Shown here: positions 2 through 10,613 of the stretch, in pieces
How positions within the stretch are numbered: the first letter of the stretch is position 1
Layout: each line of letters opens with the position of its first letter
Source: an uncultured Thermotogaceae bacterium
Lineage (GTDB): Bacteria; Thermotogota; Thermotogae; MWEM01
DNA: 11,017 bases
Direction of reading: 5' to 3'
NCBI GenBank assembly: GCA_964449405.1
Contig: CAYUYU010000080.1
Span: 1 to 11,017 of the forward strand
Program-made: the position numbers and the translations under genes
The notes under the pieces: generated by a model
Databases searched by the model: none
Told to the model about the DNA's origin: nothing
The model's input: the letters and a program-made list of their open reading frames with translations, nothing else

Positions 2-342
2 TATGCCGTTCTCCGGGTTTGTTACAAGAATCGTTACATTCGTGCACATCATGAGACAATGAGAAAGTATTATTCAGAGTAAGAAAACGCGATGTGGATG
101 CCTATGAGCATGTGAATAATACGGTGTATGCCTACTGGATCAACGAGTCCGTCCCGGATGAAGTGACGGATCAGATGATGTTGAAAAATCTAAGGATTTA
201 TTATAAACGAGAAACAACGTATCCCAATGATATTCATATCCATAATAAGGCTGTCGATAAAGATCGTATCTTGCATCGGATTGACCAAACTGATGGGAAG
301 AGCCTGGTTTATGCGGAGAGTTTTTGGAGAGAGAAAAAATGA
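2..342 (+). pseudogene. Acyl-ACP thioesterase (FatA/FatB-type), C-terminal hotdog domain only. The reading frame is broken near 52-82, and the 5' part of the gene lies upstream of the window.
   Basis: Frame 1 from 55 reads ...FRVRKRDVDAYEHVNNTVYAYWINESVPDEV...YYKRE.... This matches the C-terminal hotdog motif of acyl-ACP thioesterases (RxxDxDxNxHVNNxxYixWixEsiP ... YrrE). Frame 1 has TGA at 52-54. Frame 2 is open from position 2 to TAA at 80-82 (…HHETMRKYYSE*). A single 1-nt indel between 55 and 79 would join the two frames. The six-frame track only finds a GTG-initiated 82-aa ORF at 94..342. Confidence 0.4.
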
Positions 343-470: not shown

Positions 471-713
471 TTGAGTATGTTTTTAAAGAAAACGAACACT
501 GAAGGAAAACTATATCTCCAAGTCGTAAAATCTTACAGAGATAAACAAGGTATCAGCCGGCATAAGGTCATTTGTAACCTTGGCAGGCTGGATAAACTGC
601 GTAAAGACGAAAGCGCCAGAAGAATTCTCTTGGAATTACTGGAGTTATTACTGTCTGATGCGGATCAATCTTCAAAAGAAGAACATATTCAACAGAGTTT
701 TAATTGGGAATGA
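471..713 (+). pseudogene. Truncated IS1634-family (IS4 superfamily) transposase. Only the N-terminal ~60 aa are conserved, followed by a premature stop.
   Basis: The 80-aa ORF begins MSMFLKKTNTEGKLYLQVVKSYRDKQGISRHKVICNLGRLDKL. This matches the characteristic IS1634 transposase N-terminus (YxQxVxSYRdxxGxxRxxVixNLGrLD). Full-length proteins are about 500-600 aa. This one stops at 711-713 and is followed directly by a GC hairpin. Confidence 0.5.
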
Positions 714-763: not shown

Positions 764-2044
764 TCACTGATAATAAATTTGCGGTTCCTGAATTAATATA
801 GGTGTTCGTTCAGTAAGGACAAAGGATTGATAAATTGGTGCACCTGCATCAGGAAAATTATGGTTTTTGGTACATTTGTAGCAATAATAGTACAATTTGA
901 GTATGTTGTTACCAAACGCCGGGTTTGTTAGTGCTTGAACATTTGGCCAGTTGGCAGGATCAGTCCAAAGTTCCATTTGAAGGAGAAAATCGCTTGTAAA
1001 CTCGATGTATTGATCTTCAGCCCAATTATGATCAGTGATTCCCTCTGCTGAATCCCAGTCTCCATAAGCGTTCTTAGCGCTGGTGGTTGATGAGATAACC
1101 ATATCAACGTTTTGCATAGCTTGAGTTTGGAAATAATCAGTCCAACTCCCACCATGACAGGTTTCAAATATCAAGGTAAAGGTAACATTTTGATATTCAT
1201 TCATTAATGTTTTCAAAGTTGCACAATTGTATCCATAACCACCCATATTCATATATTGATAAGCGCCATGGGCAATAAAATAAAGCGTTAGATTAGTTAC
1301 CCCTTTATTGTTAATCAGATCCGCAACTGCATCATCTATATCTGCTGCTTGATTATTTGGATTTTCAAGCTTAACCACTCTTTCATCGCCAACTTCGCAG
1401 TTAAAGAGTTCCCACAAGGCATCAAACATCTGATCACTTGCTTGCATTGTTTCGTAATGTAAATTTTGTGACGGTGTCAATCCACAGGTTACTAAAGCAC
1501 CAAATTTTCTCAATTGAATTGGAAAAATATCATACCATCTAAAGATAACAGCCGGGATGAATACATGAGAGGGATTGTAAACAGTCCAGTTACCGGGATC
1601 TTTTGTAATTCTTGTGCTGTTTGGTTCTGTGAAAATATCAGGGATTTGCTGGTTCACGGTAGGCCATCCTTGCGTTTGCTCCTGAAACATGATCTTCCCC
1701 GTTTGACTAATGGCGAGAATTCTTCCGGGATGAGGATAAAACCCCCCCGGCTGTTCATCCAGATAGAAGAGCCAACCCGCTTCATTCACAGGATCTGATT
1801 GCCTTGCGGATGATTCTTCTTCTGTAGGGTCTTCAGAGGAGATGACATCTCCCACGTTTAAAGTACAGAGGAAATTGCCTACTGCGTTGACGGGAACATC
1901 CTCCTGATTGCCAATCCAAGTTACAAATTGGGTTTTCGCTCCTGTTAAATCAATTACAACTGCCACTCCACCACTACAGGAAAGCAGTATGAAACTCAGG
2001 AGGATGATCATGATTACAATAATCGCCGGTCTGATTCTTTTCAT
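764..2044 (-). CDS. Secreted lipoprotein with a clan-CD-like cysteine peptidase signature (legumain/gingipain/clostripain-like His...Cys dyad).
   Basis: 426-aa ORF. The N-terminus MKRIRPAIIVIMIILLSFILLSCSGG is a signal peptide with lipobox L-L-S-C. The motif ...LYFIAHGAYQ... is followed 37 residues later by ...TFTLIFETCHGGSW. This His-Gly then Cys order and spacing is typical of clan CD peptidases (C13 legumain EACESGS-like). The RBS is GGGGG with 9 nt to the ATG at 2044. Confidence 0.5.
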   Translation of the reverse strand: MKRIRPAIIVIMIILLSFILLSCSGGVAVVIDLTGAKTQFVTWIGNQEDVPVNAVGNFLCTLNVGDVISSEDPTEEESSARQSDPVNEAGWLFYLDEQPGGFYPHPGRILAISQTGKIMFQEQTQGWPTVNQQIPDIFTEPNSTRITKDPGNWTVYNPSHVFIPAVIFRWYDIFPIQLRKFGALVTCGLTPSQNLHYETMQASDQMFDALWELFNCEVGDERVVKLENPNNQAADIDDAVADLINNKGVTNLTLYFIAHGAYQYMNMGGYGYNCATLKTLMNEYQNVTFTLIFETCHGGSWTDYFQTQAMQNVDMVISSTTSAKNAYGDWDSAEGITDHNWAEDQYIEFTSDFLLQMELWTDPANWPNVQALTNPAFGNNILKLYYYCYKCTKNHNFPDAGAPIYQSFVLTERTPILIQEPQIYYQ

Positions 2045-2291: not shown

Positions 2292-2337
2292 CAATGGGTA
2301 TTCGGGCAAGATGAATGCATTTTTGACAAGTTAATAT

Positions 2338-2510
2338 CCGAATCGGAGGCGTGTTCAAGATGAGTAAGCCGGTGTTAATGGGGATTTATCCGGCTGAAAG
2401 GTAAGAACACCGAAGGGTGTCGTTCTACCCCCAAAGGAACGATATCCTGGGAATACGGGAAATACCCGTATTACTGTCACAGTTTACTGTGGAGCGCTGG
2501 TTCAATGTGT
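2338..2510 (+). promoter_or_regulatory. Lysine riboswitch (L-box) aptamer in the leader of the asd-dapA-dapB-dapH operon.
   Basis: Conserved L-box blocks appear in the canonical order, compared with the B. subtilis lysC leader: GGAGGCG (AGAGGUGC block), UUCAAGAUGAGUAAGCC (UUCAAGAGUAUGCC), GGCUGAAAGGUAAG (GCUGAAAGGGGA), CACCGAAGGGUG (GCCGAAG), ACUGUCACAG (CUGUCA) and UGGAGCGCUGG (UGGAGGGCU). The element sits directly upstream of lysine-pathway genes. Confidence 0.7.
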
Positions 2511-5984: not shown

Positions 5985-6216
5985 AGAAACCAGTAAAACG
6001 GGACCACCATCCTGGCAAATCATAAAAAAACTGCAAGTTCCGTATGAGACTGAATTTGATGTGGCGTCCAGGCTTTATAGCGCATTGGCGAAAGGTTCAA
6101 TAAATGTTAAAATGGTAATGATACCAGAAATCAAAATTTCTGTGTTAATTCCACATGTAAAGCTTGAAGAGGCTGTGAAATGCCTGAATGAGGGGTTTGA
6201 ATTATGTTTAGAATGA
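5974..6216 (+). pseudogene. Remnant of the C-terminal ACT regulatory domain of an aspartokinase. There is no upstream ATG. Possible internal starts are GTG at 6061 and ATG at 6112.
   Basis: Frame 1 is open from 5974 to TGA at 6214-6216. It reads ...DVASRLYSALAKGSINVKMVMIPEIKISVLIPHVKLEEAVKCLNEGFEL. This aligns with aspartokinase C-termini (GVAAKMFEALAEANINIEMISTSEIRISVLV....AVRALHEaFeL). The upstream 30 residues are degenerate. It overlaps the aminotransferase start by 13 nt. Confidence 0.45.
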
Positions 6217-7382: not shown

Positions 7383-8633
7383 TTAGAACTCCGCATGATA
7401 GACAGGTTTTTCACATTTGGTTAGCATTTCTGATGCCTTTTTCATTAAAGCATCATCTGAACACTCGGCTAATCCGTAGGTGACAAGTTTTTTCATAGGT
7501 ACGGCACCGAACAGCATAGATGAAAAATCGGCCATAGAGAGTTTTACTTTCAGATTTTCTTTTTCTTCACTGCTGGAGATATCCGTTTCGGTTATTTTCA
7601 ATTTGATCTGTTGTTGCTCTTTTAAGAAAGGTTCCTTGATTTCAAACAGACAAACAATGCCGTCATCTTGCTTGTTTGTTTCTGAAGATAATTGCTCCAC
7701 AAAGCGTTTGGTATCAAGAACTCTGAACATCAGACCGGTGCTGACATATGCCATGGAGTGATTGACGTGTGGGAAGAGAGCTTTGGTGTCATCACCAGGG
7801 TTATCAAACTGTTGATAGAAGGTGTCATCTTGTGAATAGAAGCGAATATTTTCAAACTGATCGGCCTGATTTCTCAAAAATCCCATAAGAGCTTTTCTGC
7901 CGTTTGTACTAAGGGTGATAAATTCGTGAACTTTTAGATCATGTCTGAGAAAATTATCTTCAGAGAGTTTCAATGGGGTGCAAATAGCATAAGCGAAAAG
8001 TTTTCCTTTTTCTCTATATCCAACAACAATATTTGAATGATTGTTCAGCATGGTTTTTGGCCATTGGGGAGGGCGTTTAATTTCTCCGTTTGTTCTTTTA
8101 AAGTGTTCATTGTAGCATATTGCGATATCCTTAATGTTATTTTCATCTAAAAAAATTACCTTTTTGGCCAACTCGTACCTTTTAATCCTATCAGTTGGGA
8201 TACGATATTTGTAAAAGGGGGTTAGCACTCCATAACCCATTTTTTTATAAAAGTCGACCCTGAAAGGATGTAATATTGAGCTGTAAATGCCTCGGTCCAT
8301 AAACCATTGAAGGCCAAATTGGATCATATCCCTGCAGATGTGTCTTTTTTTATATATCAGATCAACACCAACACCACCGATACCGCCTGTTCTGATTTCT
8401 TGCCCTCTGAAATTGATTAAAAAGTCGTAGAGAATCATGGTGCCCATCAACTTTTGGTCCTGGGAGTATGCTCCGATGGGAGTGACTGTGTCTTTGGCAA
8501 AGAAATTTTTATAACGCTCGATGTTTTTTTCCGCTTCTTGGGGTGTTGTTGAAAATGCTGGATAAACTCGATTGCGGATATTGAGAAAGTCGATCGTCTC
8601 ATTTTCTTGGAGTTTTCTGAAATTCAAGTTCAT
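7383..8633 (-). CDS. Eis-like GNAT N-acetyltransferase with a C-terminal SCP2-like domain.
   Basis: 416 aa from the ATG at 8633 (RBS AGGAGGA, 6-nt spacer). The track's longer start at 8678 would read through the RBS itself. GNAT motif-A-like RTGGIGGVGVDLIYKKRHICRDMIQ. About 400 aa with a tandem-GNAT plus SCP2 architecture. C-terminal ...FGAVPMKKLVTYGLAECSDDA resembles the Eis SCP2 tail. Confidence 0.55.
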   Translation of the reverse strand: MNLNFRKLQENETIDFLNIRNRVYPAFSTTPQEAEKNIERYKNFFAKDTVTPIGAYSQDQKLMGTMILYDFLINFRGQEIRTGGIGGVGVDLIYKKRHICRDMIQFGLQWFMDRGIYSSILHPFRVDFYKKMGYGVLTPFYKYRIPTDRIKRYELAKKVIFLDENNIKDIAICYNEHFKRTNGEIKRPPQWPKTMLNNHSNIVVGYREKGKLFAYAICTPLKLSEDNFLRHDLKVHEFITLSTNGRKALMGFLRNQADQFENIRFYSQDDTFYQQFDNPGDDTKALFPHVNHSMAYVSTGLMFRVLDTKRFVEQLSSETNKQDDGIVCLFEIKEPFLKEQQQIKLKITETDISSSEEKENLKVKLSMADFSSMLFGAVPMKKLVTYGLAECSDDALMKKASEMLTKCEKPVYHAEF

Positions 8634-8695
8634 TTTTGGTCCTCCTACTTTTGGGTTTTGAAAGATTATCAAGTTCACTTTGTTATTAGGGCATT

Positions 8696-8761: not shown

Positions 8762-8791
8762 AAAAAAGGCACACCAAACGGTGCGCCTTTT
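8762..8791 (-). terminator. Intrinsic terminator of the encapsulin operon.
   Basis: On the minus strand: AGGCGCACC-GUUU-GGUGUGCCU (9-bp stem including one G.U pair) followed by UUUUUUAC. It sits 26 nt after the encapsulin stop (8818). Confidence 0.55.
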
Positions 8792-8817
8792 GGGGAATTT
8801 ATATATTTGCTTTTGCT

Positions 8818-9609
8818 TTATTCCAGTACAACACAAGCTTCAGGAGCGTTAACTCTGAAGGTGAAGGATTCGATAAAGAAGAACACCAGTTCATTCCCTT
8901 CTTGGTGCGAATAGCCTACAGAAACATCTTGACCAACGATGAATTCAAAGTCCTCACTGTTTACAGGCAGAATAAGTCCTTTGTCTTCCAAATCAGGGGC
9001 AAATATAATGCTTCCTTCAAGCAAGTTTTCCAATCTTCTTTTTGCCGGATACCCTTTTTCATTTGGTTTGTACAGTAGTGAACGCAGTTTATCGCCTACA
9101 ATCAGGTTGAATGGACCTTCAATACCCTGGTCTTCAAGTACTTTTACTCCTTCTGCTACGGGTGTAACTAAATCATCGTCAACTTTAATGTGATCATTTT
9201 CAGATATGGGTAAAATCCCTTTGATGTTTGCATGAGATAAACCGTTAAAAATCGCCCGATTTTCTGCTTTGGCTATTTTTTCTGCAGCCTCTATCAAAGA
9301 ATCCGTTTCCACATCTTCAGCACCTCTTACGAGAGATTCAATCTCATCCATTTTTAAATTAAAAGGCACTTCAATTTCAACCATTGGCAATACCTGTCTT
9401 TTTGAATATTTAACCCCTTCAAGTGGTGTATCCTCGATGGGGATTTTTCTACCTGTATTCACCGCTGCAAAATCCATACCCTTTGGTCCAACAAAATCAA
9501 CAACTTTCCTTGCGGTTAGTTTCAGTTTGAGTATTCGTCTTGCCTCTTCATCTATAAAATCCCATGCTTGCTGGGAGATTGGGGCAATATGTCTTTTAAG
9601 ATTAGCCAT
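8818..9609 (-). CDS. Family-1 encapsulin nanocompartment shell protein (HK97-fold, linocin M18-like).
   Basis: 263 aa. MANLKRHIAPISQQAWDFIDEEARRILKLKLTARKVVDFVGPKGMDFAAV... and C-terminal ...FTFRVNAPEACVVLE align throughout with T. maritima encapsulin ([25 protein letters not shown]...FTFQVVNPEALILL). The start is assigned to the second ATG (9609), which has RBS GGAGG at 7-nt spacing. The track's ATG at 9615 is 1 nt from the RBS. Confidence 0.9.
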   Translation of the reverse strand: MANLKRHIAPISQQAWDFIDEEARRILKLKLTARKVVDFVGPKGMDFAAVNTGRKIPIEDTPLEGVKYSKRQVLPMVEIEVPFNLKMDEIESLVRGAEDVETDSLIEAAEKIAKAENRAIFNGLSHANIKGILPISENDHIKVDDDLVTPVAEGVKVLEDQGIEGPFNLIVGDKLRSLLYKPNEKGYPAKRRLENLLEGSIIFAPDLEDKGLILPVNSEDFEFIVGQDVSVGYSHQEGNELVFFFIESFTFRVNAPEACVVLE

Positions 9610-9622
9610 CTGCATTCCTCCT

Positions 9623-9982
9623 TTATTGTAACTTTTTACCCTTAATACCTAATGATTCGTCTGAAGAGCTATTGATCGAGCCGTTTGCTTCTTCCGAACC
9701 GCCTTCTTCTAAAGTTGTGATATCCCCTTCTGTGAAAAAGAATTCACGCATGTTCTCATCCCAAACCGGATTTCTTCTTCTTAACCACTCAAGACCCATG
9801 CAGGCATGTTCTATTTCCTCATCTCGGTTATGTTCAACGATTGCCTTTACACTGGGGTCACTTGTTGCTGCAGCTCTCTGATTATACCAGTCAATCGCTT
9901 CCAGTTCTTCTATAACGCTTTTGATGATTCTGTGATATTCCTTTGCTTCCTCCGGTAAATTGTCCTCATGAAACTCACTCAT
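9623..9982 (-). CDS. Encapsulated ferritin-like protein (EncFtn) cargo with a C-terminal targeting peptide.
   Basis: 119 aa. ...SVIEELEAIDWYNQRAAATSDPSVKAIVEHNRDEEIEHACMGLEWLRRRNPVWDE... matches the EncFtn fold motifs (EELEA.DWY.QR, EHNRDEE.EH). C-terminal ...SSDESLGIKGKKLQ resembles the encapsulin cargo-loading peptide (SLGIGxLK). RBS GGAGGAG is 7 nt before the ATG at 9982. It is 13 nt upstream of the shell gene. Confidence 0.85.
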   Translation of the reverse strand: MSEFHEDNLPEEAKEYHRIIKSVIEELEAIDWYNQRAAATSDPSVKAIVEHNRDEEIEHACMGLEWLRRRNPVWDENMREFFFTEGDITTLEEGGSEEANGSINSSSDESLGIKGKKLQ

Positions 9983-10031
9983 GTCATCTCCTCCTTAGGT
10001 ATTTTGATATTTAATTCTTATATATTGGTCT

Positions 10032-10066
10032 TAAATGATTATAGTATGTTATTTTTCATTTGTCAA
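10032..10066 (-). promoter_or_regulatory. Consensus sigma-A promoter of the EncFtn-encapsulin operon (-35 TTGACA, 17-nt spacer, -10 TATAAT).
   Basis: Minus strand reads TTGACA (10066..10061), then aatgaaaaataacatac (17 nt), then TATAAT (10043..10038). Both hexamers are perfect consensus with optimal spacing. The predicted start of transcription lies about 45-50 nt upstream of the EncFtn ATG. Confidence 0.55.
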
Positions 10067-10223
10067 TTGCATCTTTGGGTCAATGATGATTAACTTACTT
10101 TCTTTCAGTATATATAACGAAATGTTGTTAGGTTTTCTTACAAAAGAAAAATGAATGCCTTCACGTTTTCTTCACGGTTGCCTTGTTAGAATAGAATTGA
10201 AGAAAAACATAGGGGGGATATAA

Positions 10224-10613
10224 GTGAAACAGACAATCAAGTCCATTATGAATAAGCTTTTCCGCCTTGAAGAGAAAAAGAACCCCGGGAATGATGAGAT
10301 TATAGATCCGGATACAGGCTACAAAATCACAAAAAAAGGTGATTTTGAGTGGATTTTAAACATCCTGAGAAGAATGGGTTTTGAGGTTTACTGGTTATGT
10401 GAAAGAACGGGAAACCAGATTGGATTGATAATAGATAAGATGTTGTACGTGTGTTCCAGTAAGGATGAGCTTGATTCAAAATATCATGAAATCTATCTGA
10501 ACGATATCGCTATGTATAAAGAATATGATGAGTTTACGGACAACAAAAACGCCATATTTGGCCTTGTATTCAAGGACAGCAGAGGATTTGAATATTGTTG
10601 GAAAAAGTTATAG
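10224..10613 (+). CDS. Hypothetical protein (129 aa) with no recognisable domain, divergent from the encapsulin operon.
   Basis: GTG start at 10224 is preceded by GGGGGG (10212-10217, 6-nt spacer). The next in-frame ATG at 10248 has no RBS. The ORF ends TAG at 10611-10613 immediately before a strong terminator. Sequence: MKQTIKSIMNKLFRLEEKKNPGNDEIIDPDTGYKITKKGDFEWILNILRRMGFEVYWLCERTGNQ.... No known motif recognised. Confidence 0.5.
   Translation: MKQTIKSIMNKLFRLEEKKNPGNDEIIDPDTGYKITKKGDFEWILNILRRMGFEVYWLCERTGNQIGLIIDKMLYVCSSKDELDSKYHEIYLNDIAMYKEYDEFTDNKNAIFGLVFKDSRGFEYCWKKL

Follow-up and report, generated by a model that had tools for sequence, protein, structure and literature searches.

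The 11,017-nt contig CAYUYU010000080.1 (GCA_964449405.1) of an uncultured Thermotogaceae bacterium was analyzed over its entire length, and this whole stretch of DNA is referred to below as the window. On its minus strand we found a two-gene operon consisting of a gene for an encapsulated ferritin-like protein (EncFtn) and a gene for an encapsulin shell protein. In the direction of transcription, the promoter (10066–10038) is followed by the EncFtn gene (9982–9623), a 13-nt spacer, the shell gene (9609–8818), and a terminator (8791–8762). These five elements had been listed in a preliminary description of the same DNA, and the open reading frame (ORF) listing and direct reading of the minus strand showed that the coordinates given there were exact. 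The base composition of the operon was the same as that of the rest of the window.

The shell ORF extends from 9615 to 8818 on the minus strand. As its likely start we prefer the ATG at 9609 over that at 9615, because the ribosome-binding site AGGAGG (9622–9617, minus strand), which can be read directly within the 13-nt intergenic spacer (AGGAGGAATGCAG), sits 7 nt from the former vs. 1 nt from the latter, and because the NCBI product has 263 amino acids; the gene (8818–9609) thus encodes 263 residues followed by a stop codon. When the hidden Markov model (HMM) search proposed in the preliminary description was carried out, the protein matched the Pfam model PF04454 (Linocin_M18) with 255.3 bits, far above the cut-off of 24.3. 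This was its sole Pfam match and covered residues 3–252 of the 265-residue ORF. The NCBIfam equivalog NF041155 ('encap_f1') was matched over the full model (positions 1–261) with 255 bits against a cut-off of 100. The features of family-2 encapsulins were not present, as the 263-residue protein has neither a cyclic nucleotide (cNMP)-binding fusion nor a long N-terminal extension. Among PDB sequences, the shell matched the Haliangium ochraceum encapsulin (7odw) with an E-value of 8.7e-56 and Thermotoga maritima maritimacin with 1.5e-45, and the T=3 and T=4 shells of Myxococcus xanthus and Quasibacillus thermotolerans reached it only at about 1e-6. The same sequence (100% identity) is found at NCBI under the name 'family 1 encapsulin nanocompartment shell protein [Thermotogota bacterium]' in the metagenome-assembled genome (MAG) GCA_046542265.1; the contig of that MAG is shorter, and the EncFtn is cut on it and named 'ferritin, partial'.

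To confirm the HK97 fold, for which structure prediction had been suggested, we examined an AlphaFold2 (AF2) model of the shell protein, built with 29 homologues in the alignment and having a mean predicted local distance difference test score (pLDDT) of 91.8. The predicted model displayed a compact HK97-type fold in which an N-terminal helix (residues 13–30) replaces the extended N-arm, as in family-1 encapsulins. Foldseek comparisons of the model with solved family-1 T=1 encapsulins gave template modeling (TM) scores of 0.93–0.95 and root-mean-square deviations (rmsd) of 1.5–2.1 Å, vs. TM scores of 0.76–0.82 and an rmsd of mostly 7–8 Å with native T=3 and T=4 shells. It is a reasonable inference from the model that the shell belongs to the T=1 class with 60 subunits.

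The EncFtn gene (9623–9982, minus strand) encodes 119 amino acids followed by a stop codon. The protein consists of a two-helix ferroxidase domain (residues ~6–85), a linker rich in Gly, Ser, and Glu, and a targeting peptide at the C-terminus. Its identity was verified by HMM searches in which both curated models scored above their cut-offs: PF22277 (EncFtn-like, Pfam) gave 128.9 bits against 27, and TIGR04535 (encapsulin-associated ferritin-like protein, NCBIfam) gave 146.1 bits against 125. The EncFtn family is very large (5784 matches). EncB-family models scored below their cut-offs with this protein, and the cargo is not an IMEF. The closest PDB sequences were the EncFtn proteins of Rhodospirillum rubrum and H. 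ochraceum (E ~1e-29). Full-length sequence matches to solved structures are available for both proteins of the operon. The preliminary description had regarded the conserved Glu/His iron-coordinating residues as decisive, and the alignment with R. rubrum EncFtn showed that all ligands are present. The iron ligands Glu26, Glu56, and His59 correspond to Glu32, Glu62, and His65 of R. rubrum EncFtn, Glu25 and Glu28 to Glu31 and Glu34, and Tyr33 to Tyr39, and Trp32 is likewise present; the roles of the ferroxidase and secondary-site residues are taken from work on the R. rubrum protein (PMC5012862). The cargo therefore belongs to the EncFtn family both by the curated models and by its ferroxidase ligands (ExxH motif).

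The C-terminus of EncFtn (...SSSDESLGIKGKKLQ) had been proposed to look like a cargo-loading peptide. The sequence is as stated and carries an LGI core. The last 12 residues, DESLGIKGKKLQ (9626–9661, minus strand), form the cargo-targeting peptide, in which the LGI core is followed by a polybasic tail (SLGIKGKK) without the usual third hydrophobic residue. The general form of such peptides is L(F)-x-V(I)-x-x-L(I), and the minimal form is LxI(L)x (PMC11202242). In T. maritima, LGI is the main hydrophobic anchor in the shell pocket and the C-terminal lysines contact an acidic patch; the native peptide was modeled as NTGGDLGIRK, and the T=1 consensus is DGSLGIGSLKG (PMC7925596). A hydrophobic residue at +5 was found in 87 of the 120 closest EncFtn homologues. 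Thirteen of the 120, including all 11 best matches, carry instead a polybasic SLGI(K)GKK-type end without it, and SLGI itself is kept in all clade relatives. Judged by this pattern, the tail is a clade-specific peptide variant that still satisfies the minimal motif. Co-variation of the shell with the polybasic tail was considered and rejected, since only Gln72, Met76, and Arg176 are clade-specific in the shell and none of these is acidic. No further ORF of the window had a targeting-peptide-like C-terminus that would point to a secondary cargo.

The promoter scan verified the perfect sigma-70/sigma-A type promoter that had been reported upstream of the two genes (10038–10066, minus strand): TTGACA at 10066–10061 and TATAAT at 10043–10038, separated by a 17-nt spacer, match the consensus at 12 of 12 positions. 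Shuffled sequences gave 0.13 expected occurrences of this pattern per window with at most one mismatch. In the alignment of 11 upstream regions, both hexamers and their spacing were invariant in the window and nine relatives, and the spacer, flanks, and leader varied. The expected transcription start lies near 10031, so that the leader would measure about 49 nt. The EncFtn ribosome-binding site AAGGAGGAG (9988–9996, minus strand) was read from the sequence 5 nt before the ATG, and its GGAGGAG is kept in the window and nine clade relatives. A second perfect TTGACA-17-TATAAT sequence lies at 2702–2730 of the minus strand, so that the window holds two such sites vs. the 0.13 expected at one mismatch or less. 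This second site overlaps the ribosome-binding site and start of asd and is directed antisense into a lysine riboswitch; it may be a chance occurrence or an antisense promoter.

At the other end of the operon, the intrinsic terminator noted in the preliminary description (8762–8791, minus strand) was corroborated by its folding energy and by equivalents in relatives. It consists of the hairpin AAAAGGCGCACC-GTTT-GGTGTGCCTTTT (8791–8764) followed by a T-run to 8762, with a folding energy (dG) of -19.8 kcal/mol and a z-score of -3.6, and none of 200 shuffled sequences folded equally well. A simple terminator scan of the window did not return this hairpin. An equivalent hairpin with a T-run was found 27–50 nt past the shell stop codon in seven of the eight clade relatives with enough downstream sequence, and the stems showed compensatory changes among the relatives (GGCGCACC/GGTGTGCC, GGCACACC/GGTGTGCC, GCCACACC/GGTGTGGC, and GCACACC/GGTGTGC). 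In the eighth relative (L018), the search gave only an unrelated hairpin approximately 105 nt downstream. The operon is bounded by consensus -35 and -10 hexamers at 17-nt spacing and by a G+C-rich hairpin with a U-tract, and relatives keep these boundaries, in the case of the hairpin most of them.

Nine related loci with 81–88% shell identity retain the promoter hexamers and the gene pair, and five of them come from MAGs named Thermotogota or Thermotogaceae. A single-protein scan of GTDB species representatives gave six loci with 70–88% shell identity, all of them in MAGs named Thermotogota or Thermotogaceae. Outside this clade, the nearest named relatives of the shell belong to Halanaerobiales and other Bacillota (55–64% identity) and not to Thermotoga. 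In every relative examined, with shell identities from 62 to 88%, the EncFtn gene lies immediately upstream of the shell gene. Family-1 systems have as their standard arrangement a single cargo gene that precedes the shell (PMC8346489), and the window has such a dedicated upstream cargo gene, whose product bears a targeting peptide at its C-terminus.

The results support the preliminary reading of an EncFtn/family-1 encapsulin nanocompartment through the curated models, the metal ligands, and the predicted shell fold. We consider the locus to be a self-contained bicistronic family-1 ('classical') encapsulin operon with EncFtn (Flp) as its cargo in an uncultured member of Thermotogota, with a probability of roughly 0.92. 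This reading is built on the identities of both genes, the catalytic residues, the targeting motif, the fold class of the shell, the promoter and gene pair retained across relatives, and the terminator found in most of them.

The strong sigma-70-type promoter would give rise to a single mRNA ending at the intrinsic terminator, and the order of the genes, with the cargo first, the shell 13 nt later, and a strong ribosome-binding site before each, would give coupled synthesis. How the proteins assemble, how the cargo is loaded, and which iron chemistry and physiological role they have can be proposed by analogy with characterized homologues (PMC5012862, PMC8346489, PMC7925596). EncFtn would be expected to form ring-shaped decamers with di-iron ferroxidase sites made up of Glu26, Glu56, and His59 at the subunit interfaces. 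Its flexible tail would dock via the Leu-Gly-Ile core, with the lysines possibly assisting, into a pocket that the shell protomer has on its inner face, and 60 shell subunits would enclose the cargo in a T=1 icosahedron of approximately 24 nm. Fe(II) would then enter via the shell pores, be oxidized by EncFtn, and be deposited in the lumen as a ferric mineral. EncFtn alone is unable to keep mineralized iron soluble (PMC8346489). T. maritima encapsulin is up-regulated under oxidative stress, as cited in a review (PMC11202242). In an anaerobe, the likely benefit of such a compartment would be the removal of Fenton-active iron during exposure to oxygen or peroxide, in addition to iron storage.

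Nothing contradicted the EncFtn-encapsulin reading, and the points that weigh against it are caveats only. The T number is derived from monomer similarity alone, so that the T=1 assembly is to be read as a prediction. The tail has no counterpart of the hydrophobic residue that serves as third anchor in the common LxIxxL form, and efficient loading is accordingly an assumption. Finally, regulation by iron or peroxide is unsupported by the sequence, because no recognizable Fur, PerR, or Zur operator was found: when both strands of the 241-nt intergenic region were searched with Fur (19-mer and 7-1-7), PerR, and Zur consensus boxes, none scored above shuffled controls (500 shuffles, of which a fraction of 0.64–0.94 reached the observed score).

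The second of these points leads to the possibility that, the third anchor having been lost, little or none of this clade's EncFtn is loaded and the protein acts outside the shell, which would be empty or filled with cargo encoded elsewhere. In its favor, 13 of the 120 closest homologues, the 11 best included, have ends that read SLGI(K)GKK and not LxIxx[LIM]. We regard this as very unlikely because of the T. maritima precedent, where NTGGDLGIRK too has LGI followed by basic residues, with the lysines placed on an acidic patch (PMC7925596), and the T. maritima crystal structure shows LxI(L)x as the minimal bound motif (PMC11202242). The motif and the strict gene adjacency are moreover kept across the clade, and an EncFtn acting by itself could not hold mineralized iron in soluble form (PMC8346489). 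As encapsulins and phage capsids share the HK97 fold and are often confused by simple searches (PMC8346489), it is also conceivable that the shell is a remnant of an HK97-like prophage major capsid protein and the ferritin-like gene an unrelated neighbor. The window contains no phage genes, a cargo gene with a targeting peptide adjoins the shell gene in every relative, and the match to the family-1 equivalog NF041155 (255 bits vs. a cut-off of 100), together with the sequence neighbors and the top structural matches, all of which are encapsulins, refutes the phage origin to the point where its probability is close to nil.

A different extension of the operon is suggested by the gene that follows the terminator, at 7383–8678 on the minus strand, which encodes an Eis-like GNAT acetyltransferase (Acetyltransf_9, Acetyltransf_17, and SCP2_2). 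Its position downstream of the encapsulin is kept in five relatives (L003, L012, L016, L017, and L020) with 61–75% identity and in two differing genome contexts, one with ORF129 (a 129-residue ORF divergent from the operon) on the upstream flank and the aminotransferase gene on the far flank, the other with genes for a PAS histidine kinase and an epimerase in these places. The three genes might thus form one unit in which the GNAT serves as an accessory, for example by acetylating a lysine of the shell or cargo or an iron-linked small molecule. However, the conserved intrinsic terminator stands between the shell gene and the GNAT gene, the GNAT gene is not adjacent in the more distant relatives L004, L005, L007, and L019, its product has no targeting-peptide motif and is less conserved than the shell (61–75% vs. 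81–88%), and the shared ancestry of close genomes explains the linkage equally well. We therefore find a three-gene unit quite improbable and keep to the bicistronic operon of cargo and shell. It is likewise rather unlikely, although a little less remote, that the narrow Thermotogota clade possesses a distinct EncFtn-encapsulin sub-variant, with a minimal SLGI-plus-polylysine peptide that binds the shell mainly by charge instead of through a third hydrophobic anchor, an operator at 10108–10143, and a co-travelling Eis-like acetyltransferase that modifies the system.

The putative operator just mentioned is a 36-nt block, TTGTAAGAAAACCTAACAACATTTCGTTATATATAC (10108–10143, minus strand), which lies 42–77 nt upstream of the -35 hexamer and is conserved in the window and nine related loci. 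These include three loci that have a histidine kinase gene upstream instead of ORF129, and the core of the block, TTTCGTTATATA, was found at no other position in the examined loci. Manual reading gave no acceptable pair of sigma-70 hexamers at a suitable spacing on either strand, and we rejected the idea that the block is a further promoter. It could be guessed to be a regulator-binding site, as one candidate function. Fur-box-like sequences, TAGTAATGATTATCA and TGGAAATGATTATTG, were observed in two Halanaerobiales relatives (L004 and L005) about 15–35 nt downstream of the -10 hexamer; in these Halanaerobacter-type loci, they are located between the promoter and the EncFtn start. Both loci have the Fur-like TAATGATTATCA downstream of the -10 hexamer, and the window does not. 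Since Fur-like boxes occur in L004 and L005 but not in the window, iron regulation of the operon may differ between lineages.

The preliminary description had called the neighborhood of the operon not typical, with lysine biosynthesis on one side and a divergent ORF on the other. The flanks differ from relative to relative and include chemotaxis genes, a PAS histidine kinase, an oxidoreductase, and others; the neighborhood is therefore uninformative and the claim carries no weight, a variable neighborhood being usual for encapsulin systems. The direct downstream neighbor is, moreover, the GNAT gene and not a lysine gene. A functional link between the lysine genes and the encapsulin was rejected, as these genes are convergent with the operon, are separated from it by the GNAT gene, and have their own lysine riboswitch. 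The riboswitch (RF00168, 95.5 bits; 2336–2507, plus strand) precedes a lysine-biosynthesis operon that reaches 7340 and contains asd, dapA, dapB, a gene for tetrahydrodipicolinate N-acetyltransferase of the acetyl type (TIGR03532, 305 bits), and a gene for an ArgD-like class-III aminotransferase. Such a gene set corresponds to the diaminopimelate pathway in its acetylase branch. An ACT-domain gene (6061–6216, plus strand) situated between dapH and the aminotransferase gene encodes only 51 amino acids (ACT_9, 39 bits). In the relative L012, a 163-residue protein with two ACT domains is encoded at the equivalent place (58–549), and the upstream part in the window is in frame but diverged, so that the 51-residue version looks like a truncated remnant.

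On the other side of the operon, ORF129 (10224–10613, plus strand) is a member of an orphan family and has only seven homologues, with 71–98% identity. It gave no Pfam or NCBIfam match, and its AF2 model was unusable (pLDDT 45.8). In L009 to L011, ORF129 lies beside the same liv-type ABC transporter gene with no encapsulin present; since the linkage to the transporter persists without encapsulin, we assign ORF129 to the transporter side and do not consider it a part of the encapsulin system. Upstream of ORF129 are an extended -10 sequence, TGTTAGAAT (10184–10192), and a direct repeat, CTTCAC-N5-CTTCAC (10159–10175), with 11-bp spacing. The repeat is kept in all relatives that carry ORF129, which suggests a site of the response-regulator type. 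Near the edge of the contig, the C-terminal end of an acyl-ACP thioesterase gene (PF20791, 48 bits; 94–342, plus strand) adjoins an 80-residue ORF (471–713, plus strand) that gave no family match. A 426-residue ORF (764–2044, minus strand) with a lipoprotein-like N-terminus (...LLSCSGG) gave no Pfam or NCBIfam match.

The operon is a textbook EncFtn family-1 encapsulin system of a known kind, and the annotation of a public MAG already lists its shell as a family-1 encapsulin. Its polybasic tail, the block upstream of the promoter, and the GNAT gene linked to it are small clade-specific details and not a discovery, and beyond correct annotation the significance of the locus is slight. It can be used as one more pair of shell and tag for nanocompartment engineering, and its short polybasic peptide, a naturally occurring variant, could be compared in binding strength with the T. 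maritima and consensus peptides.

Among known systems, the encapsulin of T. maritima (maritimacin; PDB 3DKT and 7KQ5) with its Flp/EncFtn cargo is the one in which this kind of operon was first described, and T. maritima belongs to the phylum of the present bacterium. The two systems share the two-gene layout with the cargo upstream, a shell of 263–265 amino acids, the T=1 fold (TM 0.93), and a targeting peptide of the LGI-plus-basic type (NTGGDLGIRK in T. maritima and DESLGIKGKKLQ here). However, the shells are only 35% identical, and the tail is longer and more basic in the window. The encapsulin:EncFtn complex of H. ochraceum (PDB 7ODW and 7OE2) provides the best sequence match among solved shells (8.7e-56, 40% identity) and the second-best solved match to the EncFtn (4.5e-29). 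In that complex, the shell is T=1 and the EncFtn decameric; H. ochraceum is a deltaproteobacterium, and the similarity of the EncFtn tails reaches only through the SLGI core.

R. rubrum EncFtn (PDB 5DA5) shares with the present protein all six residues listed above for the ferroxidase and secondary sites. The linker and tail sequences differ, and a decameric state and activity may be assumed here by analogy. In the systems with IMEF or EncB/C/D cargo, represented by the T=4 shell of Q. thermotolerans and the T=3 shell of M. xanthus, iron is in the same general way oxidized and stored as mineral within an HK97-fold shell. With an E-value of about 1e-6, TM scores of 0.76–0.82, and 18–20% identity between the shells, the locus is not of those subtypes.

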